From positions 2,160,001 to 2,192,000 of the forward strand of contig NC_017080.1 in the NCBI RefSeq assembly GCF_000284115.1: a stretch of 32,000 bases of DNA, in the 5' to 3' direction. Of the stretch, positions 4,453-26,446 are shown piece after piece. The notes below the pieces were generated by a model. The model was not told the origin of the DNA and did not search any database. It worked only from the letters and a program-made list of their open reading frames with translations. Numbering within the stretch: the stretch's first letter is position 1; each line of letters begins with the position of its first letter. The translations under genes and the position numbers were made by a program. Source of the stretch: Phycisphaera mikurensis NBRC 102666. GTDB lineage: Bacteria > Planctomycetota > Phycisphaerae > Phycisphaerales > Phycisphaeraceae.

Positions 4453-5112
4453 TCATGCCCGAACGAGCCGTCGCCCCTCCAACCGGTGCCGTCCACCCGC
4501 GACCAGCCGGATCGCGTCGGGGAAGGCGGTCTTCTCCTGTTCCCAAACCCGCCGCTTCAGCGAGTCCGCCGTGTCGTCGGTTTCCACGGGGCAGCAGCGC
4601 TGCACGAGGATCGGGCCGGTGTCGTACGCCTCGTCGGCGAGGTGGACCGTGCAGCCCGAGACCCGGACGCCGCTTTCGAGGACGGCGCGGTGTACCCGGT
4701 TGCCGTACATGCCCAGCCCGCCGAACGCCGGCAGCAGCGACGGGTGGATGTTCAGCACGCGGCCGCGGTGGTCCTCGGGGATGTGCAGCAGCGAGAGGAA
4801 TCCGGCGAGGCAGACCAAGTCGACGCGGTGATCGCGCAGGTAGCCGAACACGTGCTCCGACAGCCCGACGCCGGCGGGCTTGTCCGCCGGGTCGGCCACC
4901 GGCAAGCCGCGTTGCTTCGCCCGGGCGAGGCCGACCGCGTCGGCGCGGGAGGCGGTGACCGCGACGATCTCGGCATCGAGCCGACCGGCGTCGATCTCGT
5001 CCTGCAGGTTCAGCAGCGTCGTGCCGCCGCCGGAGATCAGCACGCCCAGCCGCGGGCGCCGGACGGCGGGCGGGAGCCGCAGCGGCGGGGTAGAAGGGGC
5101 GTCGCTGCTCAT
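4453..5112 (-). CDS. purN: Phosphoribosylglycinamide formyltransferase
   Basis: 219 aa. RLGVLISGGGTTL, DLVCLAGFLSLL, VLNIHPSLLPAFGG, SGCTVHLADEAYDTGPIL are classic PurN motifs. TAGCTT lies 6 nt before the ATG. Confidence 0.9.
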   Translation of the reverse strand: MSSDAPSTPPLRLPPAVRRPRLGVLISGGGTTLLNLQDEIDAGRLDAEIVAVTASRADAVGLARAKQRGLPVADPADKPAGVGLSEHVFGYLRDHRVDLVCLAGFLSLLHIPEDHRGRVLNIHPSLLPAFGGLGMYGNRVHRAVLESGVRVSGCTVHLADEAYDTGPILVQRCCPVETDDTADSLKRRVWEQEKTAFPDAIRLVAGGRHRLEGRRLVRA

Positions 5113-5127
5113 GTCCGCAAGCTACCG

Positions 5128-6090
5128 ATGCCCGACCCCGCGCCCCGAACCCGCCTCGCGCCCTCGCCCACAGGCGCTCTTCATCTCGGCAACGCCCGGA
5201 CCTTCCTCGTGAACTGGGCCCTCGCGCGGAAGCGCGGCTGGCGGATCCTCCTGCGCGTCGAGGACCTCGACACCCCGCGGACGCGGGAAGGCGCCGCGGA
5301 GCAGGCGATCGACGACCTCCGCTACCTCGGCCTCGATTGGGACGAAGGCCCGGCCTACCAGTCGCCGCTGCTCGGCACGGAGGGCCCCTACGCGGCGGCG
5401 CTGCGGCGGCTCCGCGACGCCGGCCACACGTACCCGTGCCCGGCGACGCGGCGTGACCTGGAGGCGGCGAGCGCCCCCCACGAGGGCGACCCGCACGAGC
5501 TGCGGTATCCGAATCTCTGGCGGCCGCCCGCCCCGCCGCTTCCCGCGGGCGTGCCGCTGGCGGAGCGGCTGATCGTCCCGCCGGGCGGGGTCGCCTTCGT
5601 CGACGCGGTGGCCGGTCCGCGTGCCTTCGACGTCGGCGGGACCGTCGGCGACTTCCTGCTCTGGACCAAGGCCGGCCTGCCCAGCTACCAGCTCGCGGTC
5701 GTGGTCGACGACGCGCGGCAGGGGGTCACCCACGTCGTCCGCGGCAACGACCTCCTGCCCTCGACGTCCCGGCAGGTCCTCCTCTACCAACGCCTGGGCT
5801 TGGGCCCGCCTCCCGCGTGGTTCCACCTCCCGCTGGTCCGCGGCGAGGATGGCCGCCGGCTGGCCAAGCGGCACGGCGACACCCGCCTCGCGTCGTACCG
5901 TGAGGCCGGCGTTCCCGGCGAGCGGGTGGTTGCGCTGCTCGCCCGCTGGAGCGGGATGCCCGCCGAGCTCGCGGGCGAGGCGATGACCGCCGCGGCCTTT
6001 GCGCACGCCTTCGAGCTCCGGGACCTGCCCGCCGATGACGTCACGTTCACCCGAGAGGATCACGCATGGCTGACCGACGCCGCGACCTGA
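5128..6090 (+). CDS. gluQ: Glutamyl-Q tRNA(Asp) synthetase (GluRS paralogue)
   Basis: The real start is taken at ATG 5128 (MPDPAPRTRLAPSPTGALHLGNARTF...RVEDLD...). The upstream part of track ORF 4396-6090 is antisense to purN. About 320 aa with no anticodon-binding domain, which is typical of GluQRS. A KRHG-type loop (LAKRHGD) is present. Confidence 0.85.
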   Translation: MPDPAPRTRLAPSPTGALHLGNARTFLVNWALARKRGWRILLRVEDLDTPRTREGAAEQAIDDLRYLGLDWDEGPAYQSPLLGTEGPYAAALRRLRDAGHTYPCPATRRDLEAASAPHEGDPHELRYPNLWRPPAPPLPAGVPLAERLIVPPGGVAFVDAVAGPRAFDVGGTVGDFLLWTKAGLPSYQLAVVVDDARQGVTHVVRGNDLLPSTSRQVLLYQRLGLGPPPAWFHLPLVRGEDGRRLAKRHGDTRLASYREAGVPGERVVALLARWSGMPAELAGEAMTAAAFAHAFELRDLPADDVTFTREDHAWLTDAAT

Positions 6091-6779
6091 AGCACCGCAC
6101 CGGGTCACGGAGCCACGGCCCCGGGGCGTCCACGCGGTGGCGGCCCGCGGCCCGCGAACACGGCGACGGACGCAGCTCGCGCGTGGAGCCTCCGGGGCCG
6201 CGTCGCGGCGCGGCCGCTCCGCCTGCGGGCGCCAAGCCGCCACGGGCTGCCCGGGCGCGGGCGGTCGGCCCGAGGACACGCGTTGCGCTCGGGGCCGCCG
6301 CGTTCTGCGTGCTGCTGGGTCTGGTCGGCGCGGGCATCGGTTGCGACCGCGGCCCCGCGGCCGCCGTGGCCGTCGCACCCGACACGGTGGAGGCGACGAT
6401 CGGCGGCCGCTCCTTCACGCTGCAGACCGCCGTCACCGAGGAGCAGCGATACCGCGGGCTCTCCGGCGTCGCCAGCCTCCCGCCCGGCGGCGGCATGGTG
6501 TTCGCATTCCCCGACGCGGCGCCGCGTGCGTTCGTGATGCGGGACTGCTTGATCCCGCTGGACATCGTCTTCCTCGATCCCGGCGGGCGCGTCATCCGCA
6601 CCGCTCACATGCCGCTCGAGCCCGCGGGCACGCCGGAGCGCTCGCTGCCGCGGTACGAGAGCGGCTACCCGAGCCAGTTCGTGATCGAGCTGGCCGGGGG
6701 CACGCTCGAGACGCTGCGGCTCGTGGCGGGCGACGCGGTCGGCCTGCCCTACGAAGCGCTCCGGGCCGCGGCGGAGTAG
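6066..6779 (+). CDS. DUF192-domain protein (start uncertain)
   Basis: The C-terminal 120 aa (ATIGGRSFTLQTAVTEEQRYRGLSGV..LPPGGGMVFAFP...FVMRDCLIPLDIVFLD..GRV) match the DUF192 pattern. A hydrophobic segment AAAFCVLLGLVGAGIGC precedes it. Candidate starts are ATG 6066 (overlaps gluQ by 25 nt) or GTG 6183. Confidence 0.65.
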   Translation: MADRRRDLKHRTGSRSHGPGASTRWRPAAREHGDGRSSRVEPPGPRRGAAAPPAGAKPPRAARARAVGPRTRVALGAAAFCVLLGLVGAGIGCDRGPAAAVAVAPDTVEATIGGRSFTLQTAVTEEQRYRGLSGVASLPPGGGMVFAFPDAAPRAFVMRDCLIPLDIVFLDPGGRVIRTAHMPLEPAGTPERSLPRYESGYPSQFVIELAGGTLETLRLVAGDAVGLPYEALRAAAE

Positions 6780-6924: not shown

Positions 6925-8202
6925 ATGCACCCGCCCCAGCTGCTCATCCTCGAGTCCGACGACGCCGCTCCCGGGGCCTACGGCCGCATCGGCCTCCGCC
7001 ACGCGCTCCGGCGTGCGGGCCTGCCGCCGTCGGCCTGCCGCGTCCAGCGGCTCGGGGACTTCCTCTCGCGAGAAGCGACGCCGGCCAGCGCCGCCGGCTT
7101 CGCCGCCTGGCTGATCACCGGGCCCGCGACCCCCGCCGCCAGCGTGGACGAGGCGGTGGAACGCCTCGCGGCGCTGCACGCGCCGGTCGCCCTGACGCGG
7201 CAGCTCCGCAGCGGCGAGCGGGCCGCGGCCCCGGGGGAGGCCGTCATCGAGCTCGACCCCCGCACGCCGCTCGAAGCCACCGCGGCCGTCCTGGCCGCGC
7301 TCGCGCAGCAGGCCCGCCCCCAGGCGGCGCTCGCCGCCGAGCGTCACCTGCTCAAGCGGCAGCACGACGGGCTCAGCAAAGAGATGTCGCGGCTGAACGA
7401 AGAGCTGCGCATGGCGATGAAGATCCAGCGGGGCTTCCTGCCGGACGACGTGCCCGGCTTCGGCCCGCTGAGCGTCGGCGTGATGTGGCGACCGGCGGGC
7501 TACGTCGGCGGCGACCTCTACGACGTCGTCCGCCTCGACGAGCACCACGTGGGCGTCTTCGTCGTCGACGCGGTCGGGCACGGGATCCCCGCGGCGCTGA
7601 TGTCGATCTACATCCGCCAGATCCTCAAGCAGCGCGAGCTGACACCCGGCCGGGGCGGCGGCTACCGCCTGATCGAGCCCGGCGAAACGCTCCGACGCCT
7701 CAACGAGCACCTCCTCGATCTCGGCCACGGAGCGACGGCGCTGGCCACCGCCGTCGTCGGGGTGCTCGACACCCGCAGCGGAGAGCTGCGCGTCGCCCGC
7801 GCGGGCCACCCCCTGCCGCTGCTGCTCCGCCGCGGCGAGCCCGCCGAGGTGATCGGCCCCGAGGGCCCGATGCTCGGCGTCTTCGCCTGCGAGCACTTCG
7901 ACCAGCAAACGCTGCGGCTGCGCGACGGCGACCGGCTGCTCCTCTACAGCGACGGCTTCGAGCTCGCGTTCCCGAACCCCGAGCGGCCCGGCGATGCACC
8001 CGGCCGCCTCCGCGCCAGCGAGCGGTACGTCGAGGAGTTCGGGACCTTCGCCGACGCTCCCGCCGATGAGGCGATGCAGCGCTTCCGCGACCGCCTCGAA
8101 GCCGAAACCGGTTCCCTGCACCCGCCGGACGATCTCACCCTGGTCTGCCTGGCGGTGGACGGGGCGTGGGGGGACGAGGCGGCGTTGCGGGCGGCGGCGT
8201 AG
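6925..8202 (+). CDS. SpoIIE/PP2C-family serine phosphatase (RsbU-like) with N-terminal receiver-like domain
   Basis: 425 aa. C-terminal half A..IQ..FLP....G.....W.PA..VGGDLYDV........VFVVDAVGHGIPAALM...LYSDG is the SpoIIE/PP2C signature. The N-terminal 100 aa start LLILESDD like a REC domain. Confidence 0.8.
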   Translation: MHPPQLLILESDDAAPGAYGRIGLRHALRRAGLPPSACRVQRLGDFLSREATPASAAGFAAWLITGPATPAASVDEAVERLAALHAPVALTRQLRSGERAAAPGEAVIELDPRTPLEATAAVLAALAQQARPQAALAAERHLLKRQHDGLSKEMSRLNEELRMAMKIQRGFLPDDVPGFGPLSVGVMWRPAGYVGGDLYDVVRLDEHHVGVFVVDAVGHGIPAALMSIYIRQILKQRELTPGRGGGYRLIEPGETLRRLNEHLLDLGHGATALATAVVGVLDTRSGELRVARAGHPLPLLLRRGEPAEVIGPEGPMLGVFACEHFDQQTLRLRDGDRLLLYSDGFELAFPNPERPGDAPGRLRASERYVEEFGTFADAPADEAMQRFRDRLEAETGSLHPPDDLTLVCLAVDGAWGDEAALRAAA

Positions 8203-8370
8203 TGGAGAAGTGGGGAAGCGAAGAAGCGAAGAAGCGAAGAAGCGAAGAAGCGAAGAAGTGAAGAAGCGAGGAAGCGGAGAAGCGGAGAAGCGGAGAAGTG
8301 GGGAAGTGAGGCATTGAGGATGCGAGGGGGTGGGGGGTTGGCGGGGTGAGGGAGAGAGGGAGCGGGGGTT
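8203..8370 (+). repeat. 8-bp-period purine-rich tandem array (family A, locus A1)
   Basis: 13 consecutive 8-nt units (tggagaag, tggggaag, cgaagaag x5, tgaagaag, cgaggaag, cggagaag x3, tggggaag) span 8203-8306. About 8 degenerate G-rich units follow to about 8370. The array begins directly after stop codon 8200-8202. Confidence 0.9.
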
Positions 8371-15954: not shown

Positions 15955-16012
15955 CCCGATGCCCGAGTGCCACGCCGCTCGTGGGCTGGGGTGTCCGCGG
16001 GACACGCGGCCA
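15955..16012 (+). repeat. REP-like element, family R1 copy b
   Basis: CCGATGCCCGAGTGCCACGCCGCTCGTGGGCTGGGGTGTCCGCGGGACACGCGGCCAA is about 88% identical to the reverse complement of 833-893. It contains the GTGTCC-gcg-GGACAC hairpin. It lies between convergent stops (15850 and 16073). Confidence 0.75.
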
Positions 16013-16072
16013 ATTTCTGCCTCTGCGGAGACCGGTCCGGTCATCGGGCGGGCAAGGCCCGGCGTCCGCGCT

Positions 16073-22516: not shown

Positions 22517-23815
22517 ATGACCGCCGCCGCCACCGACGAAGCCACGCAGGACGTGCCGGCCCACTGCCAGGATCTCGCCGCCGCCGCCCGCGCCGCCGGC
22601 CACGCGATGGCCACCGCGCCCGGCCGCCAGCGCAACGCCGCGCTGCACGCGATCGCCGCCGCCCTCCGCGCCCGGACCCCCGAGCTGCTGGCGGCGAACG
22701 AGGAAGACCTCGCCGCCGCCGAAGGCAACGGCCTCTCCGACGCGATGATCGACCGGCTCCGCCTCACCGGCCCGCGGATCGAGCGCATCGCCGAGGCCGT
22801 CGACGCCATCGCCGCCCAGCCCGATCCCGTCGGCCGCATCCTCGAGGGCCGCGTGCTCGACAACGGCATCCGCCTCTCGAGAGTCCGGGTTCCGCTGGGC
22901 GTGGTCTTCATCGTCTTCGAGAGCCGGCCCAACGTGACGGCCGACGCGGCGGCGCTGTGCCTGAAGTCCGGCAACGCCGCGATCCTCCGCGGCGGCAAGG
23001 AGGCCGCCCACAGCAACCGAGCGATCCACGCCTGCGTCGCCGCCGGGCTCGGCGCCGCCGGCCTGCCCGCCGCCGCCGTGCAGCTGGTCGGCACCCCCGA
23101 CCGGGCCGCGGTGACGGAGCTGCTCAAGCTCGACGGCCTCATCGACGTGTGCATCCCGCGCGGCGGCGAGTCGCTCATCCGAGCCGTCGTCGAGCAGAGC
23201 CGCATCCCGGTCATCAAGCACTACACCGGCAACTGCCACGTGTACGTCGATGCCTCCGCCGACCCGGACATGGCCGAGGCGATCTGCCTCAACGCCAAGA
23301 CGCAGCGCACCGGCGTGTGCAACGCGGCCGAGACGATCCTCTTCCACGAGGCGACGCTCCGAAGCGGCCTCGCCGGCCGCGTCGTGGCCGCCCTGCTCGA
23401 CGCCGGGGTCGAGCTGCACGCCGGCGATCGCCTCCTCGACGCCACCCCCGCCCACCCGCGGCTCCGCCCCGCCACCGCCGCGGACTGGGCCGAGGAGTAT
23501 CTCTCCATGGAGTGCGCGGTGGAGGTCGTCGCTTCGCTGGACGAAGCGACCGACCACATCAACCGGTGGGGCAGCCGCCACACCGACGCGATCGTGACCG
23601 GCGACCTCGCCGCCGCCGACCGCTTCGTCGCCCGCGTCGACACCGCCAACGCCATGGTCAACTGCTCCACGCGCTTCAGCGACGGCCAGCAGTACGGGCT
23701 GGGCGCGGAGATCGGGATCAGCACCGACAAGCTGCACGCGCGGGGGCCGATGGGGGCGGAGGATTTGACGACGTATCAGTGGGTGGCGCGGGGGGATGGG
23801 CAGGTGCGGAGTTGA
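22517..23815 (+). CDS. proA: Glutamate-5-semialdehyde dehydrogenase (gamma-glutamyl phosphate reductase)
   Basis: 432 aa. PLGVVFIVFESRPNVT, ILRGGKEA, GNCHVYVD, VCNAAETIL, HTDAIVT, STRFSDG are ProA motifs. TACGCT lies 6 nt before the ATG. Confidence 0.9.
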   Translation: MTAAATDEATQDVPAHCQDLAAAARAAGHAMATAPGRQRNAALHAIAAALRARTPELLAANEEDLAAAEGNGLSDAMIDRLRLTGPRIERIAEAVDAIAAQPDPVGRILEGRVLDNGIRLSRVRVPLGVVFIVFESRPNVTADAAALCLKSGNAAILRGGKEAAHSNRAIHACVAAGLGAAGLPAAAVQLVGTPDRAAVTELLKLDGLIDVCIPRGGESLIRAVVEQSRIPVIKHYTGNCHVYVDASADPDMAEAICLNAKTQRTGVCNAAETILFHEATLRSGLAGRVVAALLDAGVELHAGDRLLDATPAHPRLRPATAADWAEEYLSMECAVEVVASLDEATDHINRWGSRHTDAIVTGDLAAADRFVARVDTANAMVNCSTRFSDGQQYGLGAEIGISTDKLHARGPMGAEDLTTYQWVARGDGQVRS

Positions 23816-23823
23816 CGTGCGAG

Positions 23824-23957
23824 CGAAGAAGCGGGGAAGCGAAGAAGCGAAGAAGTCGGCACGACCCGGAACGGTCTCGCGGTCCGGAGGCGGTCGGCGT
23901 AGCCGCCGCGTGCCTGTCTGACTTCCCCGCTTCTTCGCTTCTTCGCTTCTTCGCTTG
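23824..23957. repeat. Inverted pair of 8-bp-unit arrays around a 65-bp spacer (family A, locus A2)
   Basis: Left arm cgaagaag-cggggaag-cgaagaag-cgaagaag (23824-23855). Right arm cttccccg-cttcttcg-cttcttcg-cttcttcg-ctt (23922-23956), which is its reverse complement with the variant unit shifted. Located between the proA stop (23815) and the rarA start (23976). Confidence 0.85.
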
Positions 23958-23975: not shown

Positions 23976-25337
23976 ATGCAAGATCTCTTCGCCGATCGCC
24001 GCCAGCAGAAACGCGACGCCGCCGCGCCGCTGGCGGTGCGGATGCGGCCGCGCACGCTCGACGCGTACGCGGGGCAGAAGCACCTGCTCGGCCCCGGCGA
24101 GCCGCTGGCGCGGCTGATCGCGGCGGACCGGCTCGGCAGCGTGCTCCTGTACGGGCCGCCGGGCACCGGGAAGACCACGCTGGCGGAGCTGATCGCGCGC
24201 CGCACCGACGCCGTCTTCGTGCGCGGCCACGCGGCGTCGGCGGGCGTGAAGGAGGTGCGCCAGGTGCTCGACGCGGCGCGGCAGCGGCTGGAGCTCGACG
24301 GCCACCGGACCGTTTACTTCCTCGACGAGGTGCACCGCTTCAGCAAGAGCCAGCAGGACGTGCTGCTCGAGGACGTGGAGCGGGGCGTCGTCACGCTGAT
24401 CGGCGCGACCACCGAGAACCCGATGTACGCGGTCAACGCCGCGCTCGTCTCGCGGAGCCAGATCTTCGCGCTCGAGCCGCTGTCCGAGCGGGACGTCGCC
24501 GGCGTGCTGCGGCGGGCGGTGGCCGACGAGGACAACGGCTACGGCGGGCAGGGCGTGACACTCGACCAGGACGCGCTCGCCTTCCTGGCCCGGGCCAGCG
24601 ACGGCGACGCGCGGAGAGCCCTCAACGCGCTGGAGGTCGCGGTGCTCTCCGAGCGTCACGCGGCGGAGGAAGGATCCGCGGACCGCGGGCCCGGGGACGC
24701 CGAAACCGCACCGGTCCGCGGGTTCCCGCCCGTGCGCGTCACGCTCGGAGCCGCCGAGAAGTCGCTGCAGCGGAAGGCGCTCGCGTACGACCGCGCCGGC
24801 ACCGAGCATCACGACACCATCTCCGCCTTCATCAAGAGCGTCCGCGGCAGCGACCCCGACGCGGCGCTCTATTGGCTCGCGAAGATGATCGTCGCCGGCG
24901 AAGACCCGCGCTTCCTCGCCCGCCGCATCGCCATCCTCGCCAGCGAGGACGTCGGAAACGCCGACCCGCGCGGGATCCTCGTCGCCGCCGCCTGCTTCGA
25001 CGTCGTCGAGCGGATCGGCATGCCCGAGGCCCGGATCACGCTCGCCCAGGCCACCGTCTACCTCGCCACCGCGCCCAAGAGCAACGCCAGCTACGCCGCC
25101 ATCAACGCCGCCATCGCCGACGTCGAAGCCAACCGCACGCAGCCCGTGCCCACCGCGCTGCGTTCCGCCCGCAACCGCAAGAGCGGCGACTACAAGTACG
25201 CCCACGCCGCCGAGGGCGGCGTGAGCGACGAGACGTACCTCGGCGTGCCGACGACCTTCTACACCCCCACCGACCGCGGCCACGAGGTGCGGATCGCGGC
25301 GTACCTGCAGTGGGTGAAGGAGCGCCGCGGCGCGTGA
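23976..25337 (+). CDS. rarA: Replication-associated recombination protein A (AAA+ ATPase, MgsA/RarA)
   Basis: LRPRTLDAYAGQKHLLG, Walker A GPPGTGKTT, Walker B YFLDEVHRF, GATTENP, C-terminal DAALYWLAKMIVAGEDPRFLARRI. ATG 23976 is preferred over TTG 23955, which lies inside repeat A2. Confidence 0.9.
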   Translation: MQDLFADRRQQKRDAAAPLAVRMRPRTLDAYAGQKHLLGPGEPLARLIAADRLGSVLLYGPPGTGKTTLAELIARRTDAVFVRGHAASAGVKEVRQVLDAARQRLELDGHRTVYFLDEVHRFSKSQQDVLLEDVERGVVTLIGATTENPMYAVNAALVSRSQIFALEPLSERDVAGVLRRAVADEDNGYGGQGVTLDQDALAFLARASDGDARRALNALEVAVLSERHAAEEGSADRGPGDAETAPVRGFPPVRVTLGAAEKSLQRKALAYDRAGTEHHDTISAFIKSVRGSDPDAALYWLAKMIVAGEDPRFLARRIAILASEDVGNADPRGILVAAACFDVVERIGMPEARITLAQATVYLATAPKSNASYAAINAAIADVEANRTQPVPTALRSARNRKSGDYKYAHAAEGGVSDETYLGVPTTFYTPTDRGHEVRIAAYLQWVKERRGA

Positions 25338-25365
25338 GCACAAACCGGATCGGCCCGGGCCGGTC

Positions 25366-25477
25366 AGGGCCGGACCGCCACGCGGTCCGGAACTCCGGCG
25401 CAGCCGGAGGCGTCCCGCCGACCCACGAAACACCGCCTGCTGGCGCAGGCGTTCCGGGCTGCGTGGCAGCCCGGCCC
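25366..25477 (+). repeat. REPIN-like quasi-palindrome, family R2 copy 1
   Basis: Hairpins CCGGACCGC-cac-GCGGTCCGG, CTCCGG-cgcag-CCGGAG, GCCTGC-tggc-GCAGGC, CCGGGCTGC-gtg-GCAGCCCGG. The ends GGGCCGG...CCGGCCC pair. The two outer hairpins are inverted homologues. Confidence 0.85.
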
Positions 25478-25509
25478 TTGCGTCCGTGGTAGGAGTTGCA
25501 GAACCACGC

Positions 25510-26010
25510 TCAGCCGCTGGAGACCGGCGACCGCCAGCCGCGGGCGTGGTCCCACAGCCAGCCGCCGTGCTGCGGGAGGTATTGCTCCCGGAAGAAGTCG
25601 AAGCCGTCTGCGTTCAACACCCGCCGCAGGTTTCCGCCTTCGGACAGAAAGGGAAGCGGCTCTCCCGCCTCCCTGAGTGCGGTGGAGACGGAGCGTTTGA
25701 TCGAGCGGCGGATGGAGGGCGCGGGCCGCTCGTCGCTCCATCCGACCAGCGGGTGGAGGTGAGTCAAGGAGCTCCCGATCGTCCAGACCTTCAACCGCAG
25801 CGGAGACGCCGAGGCAAGGATCGCCTCACCCGCGAGCCGCTGAACACGCGGCGAGAAGCGACGCTCCGGGTGCTTTATCGACAGCCGCTGCCACCGGCCC
25901 AGACGCGGAGCCGGAGGCTGCGTTTGCTTCTTGCGCCGATCGGTCCACCCCTCCTCCTTGTCGGCAAGCCAGGTCCCGTACGCGTGGAGGGTCAGCAAGA
26001 AGCGGGGCAT
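25510..26010 (-). CDS. HUH/Y1 transposase-like protein (REP-associated tyrosine transposase candidate)
   Basis: 166 aa from ATG 26010 (TACTCT 6 nt upstream); it is the C-terminal part of the spurious 620-aa track ORF. THLHPLVGW (HLH at residues 84-86) and REQYLPQHGGWLW (Tyr144) resemble the HUH and catalytic-Tyr motifs of IS200/RAYT proteins. The size fits RAYTs. Many A/T-ending codons. Confidence 0.6.
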   Translation of the reverse strand: MPRFLLTLHAYGTWLADKEEGWTDRRKKQTQPPAPRLGRWQRLSIKHPERRFSPRVQRLAGEAILASASPLRLKVWTIGSSLTHLHPLVGWSDERPAPSIRRSIKRSVSTALREAGEPLPFLSEGGNLRRVLNADGFDFFREQYLPQHGGWLWDHARGWRSPVSSG

Positions 26011-26048
26011 ACTTCGAGAGTACCGAACACCAACCAGATCTTTAGCGC

Positions 26049-26161
26049 AGGGCCGGACCGCCACGCGGTCCGGAACTCCGGCGCAGCCTGAGGTGTCTCG
26101 CCGACTCCCGAGACCCCGCCTGCTGGCGCAGGCGTTCCGGGCTGTGTGGCATCCCGACCCT
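26049..26161 (+). repeat. REPIN-like quasi-palindrome, family R2 copy 2
   Basis: About 91% identical to 25366-25477 in the same orientation. The first hairpin is identical. The last hairpin is degraded (CCGGGCTGT-gtg-GCATCCCGA). Confidence 0.85.
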
Positions 26162-26170
26162 GCTCGGCCT

Positions 26171-26446
26171 TCAGTCCGACCCCTCCCCCGCCCGGTGTTC
26201 GAACTTCGGGATGTCATCCGCCGGCATCTCGTCGGCTCTCGCCTCCGCCGGCGGCTCCTCCACGGGGGCGATCGAAGCGAGCGGGACCCCGCGGGTGGCG
26301 TCCTCCATCTCAAGCGTGAGGAAGAGGCCGTCGGAGGCGATTGCCCGCCCGTCCATGAAGCCGAGCCTGGCCGCGGGCGTGCCGCGGATCGAGACGTCTT
26401 CGGCCCGGCGGAACCCCACGCGGACGCTGCGGTCGAGGGAGGGCAT
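26171..26446 (-). CDS. Small hypothetical protein (start unresolved)
   Basis: High GC3 continues in this frame from about 26584 to stop 26171. The first ATG (26446) gives 91 aa. The upstream in-frame stretch WKKSFLPACLLVAAAAAALPVHLGDGREAQA looks like a signal peptide but has no ATG, GTG or TTG. Confidence 0.35.
   Translation of the reverse strand: MPSLDRSVRVGFRRAEDVSIRGTPAARLGFMDGRAIASDGLFLTLEMEDATRGVPLASIAPVEEPPAEARADEMPADDIPKFEHRAGEGSD

Follow-up and report, generated by a model that had tools for sequence, protein, structure and literature searches.

The repetitive extragenic palindromic (REP)-associated tyrosine transposases (RAYTs) are the standard example of bacterial transposases domesticated by their hosts, and their benefit to the host is still unsettled. 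HUH/Y1 enzymes, to which they belong, read DNA hairpins by shape plus a few unpaired bases. Here we describe a RAYT-like locus of Phycisphaera mikurensis, located in a window of 32,000 nucleotides (the whole stretch that was analysed; contig NC_017080.1, positions 2,160,001 to 2,192,000), in which a minus-strand gene for a 166-residue protein is bracketed by two palindromic elements. REP/RAYT pairs have already been reported in Planctomycetes, e.g. in Rhodopirellula baltica (PMC3733652, PMC6006769), which speaks against an essentially proteobacterial distribution, as implied in a first-pass annotation of this window by the statement that RAYTs have been characterised mainly in Proteobacteria; P. 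mikurensis itself is absent from the survey of Di Nocera et al. 2013 (PMC3733652). In the classification of Quentin et al. 2018, TnpA-Y1 class 3 is represented in Acidobacteria and Proteobacteria as well as in Planctomycetes, and is described as having "atypical secondary structures... reminiscent of a REPtron" on its flanks (PMC6006769).

The P. mikurensis locus is probably a RAYT-like REPtron of an undescribed Y-L-P-x-H subclass, namely, a vertically inherited, single-copy, domesticated HUH/Y1 homologue together with its cognate REP hairpins. It adds a branch to a type of system that is already known, and does not constitute a type of its own. The observations that carry this reading are the fold and motifs of the protein, the anatomy of its flanks, the covariation of the hairpin stems, synteny and purifying selection among relatives, and the family-wide association with REP-like hairpins.

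The encoded protein, its family and its predicted fold

The open reading frame (ORF) lies on the minus strand (25510..26010) and encodes a divergent homologue of the HUH/Y1 transposases, with an ATG start kept as MPRF/VPRF among relatives. Its product is 100% identical to WP_041378050.1, which bears the database name "hypothetical protein". The G+C content at third codon positions (GC3) is 0.855, compared with 0.94-0.98 for seven neighbouring genes, in agreement with the deviant codon usage remarked on in the first-pass annotation.

An exhaustive phmmer search recovered 184 clusters (at 50% identity) at E <= 1e-3, mostly of about 160 residues, and the top family members are annotated as hypothetical. 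In an alignment of 105 of these clusters (A2), 61 relatives match PF01797 (Y1_Tnp) at E <= 1, the best at 1.9e-11. When ten proteins were scanned singly against PF01797, no more than two exceeded the 23-bit cut-off, namely P0034 (35 bits), a member of this subfamily, and P0180 (30.7 bits), which is class-3-like. The A2 profile matched the TnpA proteins of ISDra2 and IS608 in PDB at E ~5e-4, with the HvH motif aligned on DHVH, and E. coli TnpA-REP at E = 0.3. An hhalign comparison with TnpA-REP, the sequence of which was verified as 4er8_A, aligned THLH on EHMH at E = 0.003, over the HUH core only.

The AlphaFold2 model built with the 105 sequences of A2 has a predicted local distance difference test (pLDDT) score of 97.1 and supersedes an earlier, unusable run with 4 sequences (pLDDT 53). 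Its order of strands and helices is that of TnpA, plus a 43-residue insertion after strand 1 and before helix A. The best 30 Foldseek matches in PDB are exclusively IS200/IS605 TnpA chains or E. coli TnpA-REP (4er8), with E = 4e-4 to 2e-2, and 4er8 stands at rank 21 (E = 2.4e-3).

The HUH motif H84-L85-H86 (25753-25761, minus strand) and the putative catalytic Y144 (25579-25581, minus strand) can be read directly from the sequence, and the His and Tyr residues singled out in the first-pass annotation proved to be conserved throughout the family. H84 and H86, which are placed on strand 84-90 of the model and align with the HUH motifs of ISDra2, IS608 and TnpA-REP, are kept in 104 of the 105 members of A2. 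Y144 is found in 90 members, and the putative third metal ligand H148 (25567-25569, minus strand) in 88, with Q in another nine; both residues are located on or just past helix 134-147. A polar residue at Tyr+4 is known from IS608 (Y127/Q131) and TnpA-REP (N119) (PMC6006769). The Y-x-x-x-polar spacing of Y144 and H148 equals that of both proteins, while no sequence alignment extends to the Tyr motif.

Flanking elements

Two direct copies of a 114-nt element (25365-25478 and 26048-26161), 91% identical with 10 mismatches, enclose the ORF, as described in the first-pass annotation. Each copy is a pair of inverted REP units, and a doublet of the REPIN type (two REP units folding into one hairpin) therefore stands on both sides of the ORF, at distances of 31 nt and 37 nt. 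According to fold predictions, every 121-nt element forms a single long REPIN-type hairpin (z = -3.8 to -4.3).

rarA (stop codon at 25337) and the ORF (stop codon at 25510) converge on the downstream REPIN-like element (copy 1, 25365..25478), which lies between their 3' ends. The left unit of copy 1, on the plus strand, consists of the foot AGGG (25366-25369), the outer hairpin 1 with the sequence CCGGACCGC-CAC-GCGGTCCGG (25370-25390), the linker AA and the inner hairpin 2, CTCCGGC-GCA-GCCGGAG (25393-25409). The right unit, on the minus strand, comprises hairpin 2, CGCCTGC-TGGC-GCAGGCG (25434-25451), and hairpin 1, CCGGGCTGC-GTG-GCAGCCCGG (25454-25474). In the upstream element (copy 2, 26048..26161), which has the same orientation, hairpin 1 recurs at 26053-26073 and is followed by hairpin 2 with one mismatch (26076-26092), hairpin 2' (26117-26134) and a decayed hairpin 1' with 3 mismatches (26137-26157). 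Three of the four outer 9-bp hairpins expected from the first-pass annotation are thus present and the fourth is decayed; the inner hairpins exist, with stems of 7 bp instead of 6 bp. Matches to the 21-nt hairpins number 5 and 3, compared with 0.03 and 0.00, respectively, expected from shuffled sequences. A search of Rfam returned one sub-threshold chance match, PtaRNA1, at 20.5 bits against a cut-off of 47.

Copy 2 is separated from the ATG codon by a spacer on the minus strand (26011..26047), in which the motif TACTCT lies 6 nt ahead of the start codon. The motif of the proposed leaderless start is therefore present; leaderless initiation itself is unproven, and a search for sigma-70-like or consensus promoters upstream of the ORF found none. 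Any promoter must be in this spacer, or inside or beyond the upstream REPIN.

Directly past copy 2, assembly GCA_014207395.1 has a further annotated ORF of 91 residues (26171-26446), which is encoded on the minus strand like the RAYT-like gene. This ORF matches nothing in Pfam, has no convincing homologue in the related loci (21-28% identity), and was dropped as a component of the system on account of this unconvincing conservation.

Design and covariation of the REP units

A comparison of P. mikurensis with three related metagenomic genomes (L001-L003) drew on fifteen REP units in total. These units are all built alike: a CAGGG foot is followed by hairpin 1, the loop of which is CAC, then by AA(C) and hairpin 2. 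Stem 1 exists in three variants, namely ACC/GGT, GCT/AGC and a bulged form, and stem 2 in four, namely CTCCGGC/GCCGGAG, CGCCTGC/GCAGGCG, CACCCGC/GCGGGTG and CACCTGC/GCAGGTG. Nearly all of these variants are fully paired owing to compensatory changes, and the foot, loop and linker are invariant. Judged from the sequences, this covariation is the signature of a structure read by its shape and by a few unpaired bases. The two-hairpin unit is of interest in that its covariation separates the bases read as shape from those read as sequence.

From the behaviour of IS608 TnpA and E. coli TnpA-REP, it may be expected that the enzyme would bind a REP unit in single-stranded DNA, recognising the shape of both stems and the invariant unpaired bases of the foot (CAGGG), loop (CAC) and linker (AA). 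A divalent metal would be held by H84, H86 and H148, and cleavage and rejoining would proceed through a 5'-phosphotyrosine link to Y144. Catalysis by these residues on REP hairpins, the identity of the cleavage site and the mobilisation of the repeats are all transferred from these two enzymes, and would apply to P. mikurensis if its protein acts in the same manner.

Conservation in related genomes

In L001-L003 an orthologue occupies the same site, convergent with rarA and adjoining proA, and carries the same flanking elements. The rarA proteins of these genomes are 88-89% identical to that of P. mikurensis (88-96% across all four genomes), and the ORF products are 62-68% identical. The ratio of nonsynonymous to synonymous substitution rates (dN/dS) of the orthologues is 0.21-0.28 at a dS of about 1, and their dN is roughly threefold that of adjacent genes. 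All four genomes have the arrangement [type-b unit -> type-a unit], gene, [type-b -> type-a], except that just one REP unit makes up the downstream flank in L001 and L003, where the gene is retained. The phmmer matches, obtained in a protein-level search, include only one P. mikurensis protein, and the gene looks to be single-copy in this genome. Single-copy status and vertical conservation had been proposed as checks in the first-pass annotation, and the protein search and the synteny agree with them.

The two flanks of P. mikurensis are more alike (91%, with the same stem variant) than the flanks of its relatives are to each other. This greater likeness points to homogenisation by gene conversion or REPIN replacement in the P. 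mikurensis lineage, which would be the only trace of activity in this species.

Some peculiarities of the relatives should be mentioned. The L003 orthologue (4828-5312) is frameshifted, with residues 1-48 in one frame and 46-162 in another, and is either a pseudogene or the product of an assembly error; an IS66-family transposase gene lies 0.7 kb upstream of it. Two features were noted in L002 (59-113 and 1650-1713): an additional REP unit precedes the REPIN of the gene itself by 860 bp, and the called protein P0003 bears a 36-residue C-terminal extension that is the translated downstream REPIN.

Distant family members with hairpin flanks

Five distant members of the family were inspected together with their surroundings, namely, two paralogues from the Phycisphaeraceae genome GCA_046290505.1 (L036 and L038), one from a Planctomycetota metagenome-assembled genome (MAG; L039), L043 and L044. 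Every one of them lies between hairpins that are specific to its lineage and carry a (G/A)TAG foot. In GCA_046290505.1 the GTAG-CCGCCG hairpins are dispersed over 40 kb in more than 20 units, with arrays of ~149-bp doublets, and are a genuine REP population. The presence of hairpin flanks in five distant members and the dispersal of the hairpins in GCA_046290505.1 indicate that the gene family behaves like RAYTs generally. The flanks are inverted in L043 and direct in L044. The direct orientation seen in P. mikurensis, which the first-pass annotation had considered a mark of a new group, carries little information because each flank is itself a palindromic doublet.

The two paralogous RAYT-like genes of GCA_046290505.1 are about 54 kb apart on one contig, and tandem doublet arrays resembling clusters of bacterial interspersed mosaic elements (BIMEs) are found at 10490-11153 of L038 and 16954-17676 of L036. 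In GCA_030432595.1 (L044), the homologue P0178 is located between 100% identical direct CATAG-CCCCGCAAACGCTTGCGGGG hairpins, and a third, palindromic copy is found inside the P0178 gene (coordinates 5949-5973, 6271-6300 and 6542-6566), fitting a Cys-rich stretch of the protein that has no counterpart in other members.

Subfamily and place among the TnpA-Y1 proteins

A profile search collected 4038 proteins at E <= 1e-5. Beyond the immediate family it reached, at E ~1e-42, proteins with the motifs NHVH / WWTE / YVLExQ, which are labelled by JGI "REP element-mobilizing transposase RayT", a generic COG name, and are the counterparts of class 3 in Quentin et al. 2018 (PMC6006769). The family itself has an N-terminal FTxHAYGxWLPD and combines [TSN]HxH, WFS (FLS in P. 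mikurensis) and Y-L-P-x-H-x-G; for this combination of three motifs there is no equivalent among the 11 TnpA-Y1 subclasses tabulated in the same study (Table 1, PMC6006769). The suggestion of a divergent RAYT group in the first-pass annotation thus found support in the Y-L-P-x-H motif. The best explanation of these motifs and profile matches is that the family is an undescribed, mainly planctomycete Y-L-P-x-H subfamily, probably sister to class 3 TnpA-Y1.

The significance of this branch lies in its size (~184 clusters) and in the fact that it is mostly unannotated and largely missed by standard surveys based on PF01797. It has His where Gln or Asn is usual near the (putative) catalytic Tyr. 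A functional annotation is thereby gained for WP_041378050.1 and its relatives.

Other repeats in the window and in Planctomycetes

The R1 repeats at 776-893 and 15956-16014 are real (59 nt, 88%). They represent a palindrome of REPIN type in its own right, the arms GGGTGCCACGCCGCTTGCGGGGTG of which are found at 776 and 884, with a partial inverted copy 15 kb away, and constitute a second dispersed repeat family in this genome without an identified cognate gene. Their interpretation as dispersed relatives of the flanks, made in the first-pass annotation, is unsupported: all they have in common is the 8-nt core TGCCACGC, with 5 occurrences in the window, and R1 lacks the CAC-loop hairpin. Tandem arrays of the octamer GCGAAGAA occur at 8186-8333 (~13-18 copies) and 23807-23956. 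In the proA-rarA intergenic region the octamers form two inverted arrays (23822-23886 and 23891-23955), which could fold into a long hairpin of ~65 nt.

CAGGG-footed copies were absent from a metagenome scan, in which the few planctomycete hairpins that turned up were TAG-footed. A hairpin that agrees with the P. mikurensis REP hairpin in all 21 nt and in the AAC behind it, with a TAG foot, was found in Pirellulales/Planctomycetaceae MAGs (L019 3226-3246, L027 833-853, L032 3007-3027 and L034 2327-2377, 7323-7347 and 7386-7435). In L034 it belongs to a two-hairpin module, TAG-hp1-A.A-CCGGCGAGC-ATG-GCTCGCCGG-CTA, which is repeated at 2327-2377 and 7386-7435; no Y1 gene is near these hairpins, none lying within 8 kb. 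The Pirellulales MAG STL-PLA31 contains a TAG-CCGGACCGCCACGCGGTCCGG module.

Evaluation of the REPtron assignment and of alternative explanations

Several results weigh against the assignment of the locus to the REPtrons. The foot of the P. mikurensis REPs is CAGGG, not GTAG. In 46 kb of sequence, made up of the window with 10 kb on its left and 4 kb on its right from assembly GCA_014207395.1, no REP copy with <=4 mismatches to either hairpin was found apart from those of the locus, and the dispersed population expected in the first-pass annotation was not seen in this span. A genome-collection scan with CCGGNCNGCCACGCNGNCCGGAAC returned 32 matches, mostly due to chance in GC-rich genomes and of no use as a census; none came from P. 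mikurensis, and the window's own three matches were missing too, and therefore either this genome is absent from the collection or the window was masked and there is no exact match elsewhere. As for the protein, WP_041378050.1 has zero direct matches in Pfam, NCBIfam and PDB sequences, and PF01797 detects nothing in it at E <= 10, let alone at the gathering score. The PF01797 matches of its relatives, mostly below the gathering score, cover the HUH core only (profile positions 16-86 of 121), and the Tyr assignment thus rests on conservation, helix position and fold. The Foldseek TM-scores are moderate (0.41-0.50 on the query, 0.48-0.65 on the target). The direct PF01797 match that an IS200-like HUH/Y1 protein might show is thus missing, and it is the family profile and the predicted fold that uphold this part of the first-pass annotation; by transitive homology and modelled structure, the assignment of WP_041378050.1 to HUH/Y1 holds without a direct profile match.

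It is improbable that the region is an IS200-like insertion sequence (IS), fossil or still autonomous, of ~800 bp (25365-26161), with the 114-nt flanks as left and right ends carrying subterminal hairpins. Such an element would account for the direct flanks, the length of the unit (~797 bp, near IS200 size), the profile closer to IS200/IS605 TnpA (E = 5e-4) than to TnpA-REP (E = 0.3), the class-1-like Y+4 spacing, the GC3 below and the dN ~3x above those of the neighbouring genes, and the frameshift in the L003 orthologue. However, it is weakened by the fixed synteny, with the same insertion point in four genomes whose rarA proteins are 88-96% identical, by the single P. mikurensis protein among the phmmer matches and by the long-term purifying selection (dN/dS of 0.21-0.28 held over dS ~1). 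Moreover, the flanks are palindromic doublets, not distinct left and right ends, L001 and L003 keep the gene with a single-unit downstream flank, its relatives are found alongside numerous scattered hairpins that carry no gene, and no tnpB gene is present. Comparably small is the probability that the flanks are host regulatory hairpins (a bidirectional terminator, mRNA stabiliser or operator) duplicated around a gene for a non-cutting product, e.g. an HUH-fold DNA-binding regulator. The family-wide conservation of H84, H86, Y144 and H148 argues for retained catalysis instead, and in other lineages the gene recurs with lineage-specific hairpins at unrelated genomic sites; the position of copy 1 between convergent genes, an expected terminator site, that of copy 2 only 37 nt upstream of the ATG, the terminator-like score of one arm and the lack of dispersed copies in 46 kb all fit a regulatory element, as does the known involvement of REPs in termination and mRNA stability (PMC3733652). 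One and the same element could have both a regulatory and a REPtron role.

In a genome of 73% GC, it could be suspected that the ORF is spurious and that a GC-rich palindrome was duplicated around it by chance, as a purely local event, since high-GC genomes yield many long spurious ORFs, including overlapping ORFs here, and the repeat is confined to this locus within the window. This explanation is refuted by the 184-cluster protein family, the model with a pLDDT of 97, the purifying selection on the orthologues and the retention of the flanks with compensatory stem changes in four genomes; besides, shuffled sequences give essentially zero matches.

A narrower version of the REPtron reading, possible but rather doubtful, is that of an orphan REPtron, in which a catalytically intact Y-L-P-x-H enzyme is maintained by purifying selection across the Phycisphaera clade with two flanking REPINs only, and the CAC-loop hairpin is an ancient phylum-wide module. 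The host function would then lie in the enzyme and the flank pair itself, e.g. in local processing of single-stranded DNA or in self-regulation, and not in the upkeep of a repeat population. The 21-nt CAC-loop hairpin shared with dispersed two-hairpin repeats of Pirellulales/Planctomycetaceae would, in that case, represent an ancient recognition module of the phylum. P. mikurensis may keep the gene without a visible repeat population, which, if confirmed, would offer a natural test separating RAYT function from REPIN propagation.

Comparison with known systems

In sequence, the family is nearest to the class 3 TnpA-Y1 proteins, which are similar to it in length and share its N-terminal YGTWLP-D-x-GW. 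However, class 3 is defined by NHVH, W[TA], Y----Q and a CnGA foot, none of which applies to WP_041378050.1, where THLH, F-L-S, Y-L-P-x-H (with His at Tyr+4) and CAGGG are found, with (G/A)TAG feet in other family members; the protein is homologous to class 3 yet belongs to a separate motif group. In addition, PF01797 covers the Tyr motif in the class 3 protein P0180 (profile positions 13-118), whereas in this family it covers the HUH core alone.

Like the RAYT/TnpA-REP proteins of E. coli and Pseudomonas (class 2; Bertels groups 2 and 3; PDB 4er8), the gene is apparently single-copy, vertically inherited and flanked by REPs/REPINs, its product has a HUH core and a putative catalytic Tyr with a polar residue at Tyr+4, and its REPIN doublets fold into one long hairpin. 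Unlike class 2, which has YI..NP and a GTAG foot, it has YLPQH and a CAGGG foot, its REP unit consists of two consecutive stem-loops, and the sequence similarity between the two families is confined to the HUH core.

The TnpA proteins of IS200/IS605 (IS608 and ISDra2; class 1) provide the best sequence and fold matches in PDB, and resemble the P. mikurensis system in the Tyr-x-x-x-polar spacing and in the hairpins located in direct orientation either side of the gene. In contrast to these elements, which are recognised by multiple near-identical copies, variable sites and Y[IV]ENQ, the gene is apparently present once per genome and keeps its synteny from species to species, occupying one fixed site in the four genomes compared. 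It has YLPQH and no accompanying tnpB, is flanked by palindromic doublets, and encodes a protein in which 43 additional residues separate strand 1 from helix A.

Within the same phylum, the GTAG-tagged REPs of R. baltica (Di Nocera et al. 2013, PMC3733652) are likewise short, foot-tagged stem-loops adjoining tyrosine-transposase genes. Other members of the family described here approach them further in having (G/A)TAG-footed hairpins, whereas the P. mikurensis clade is set apart by its CAGGG foot.

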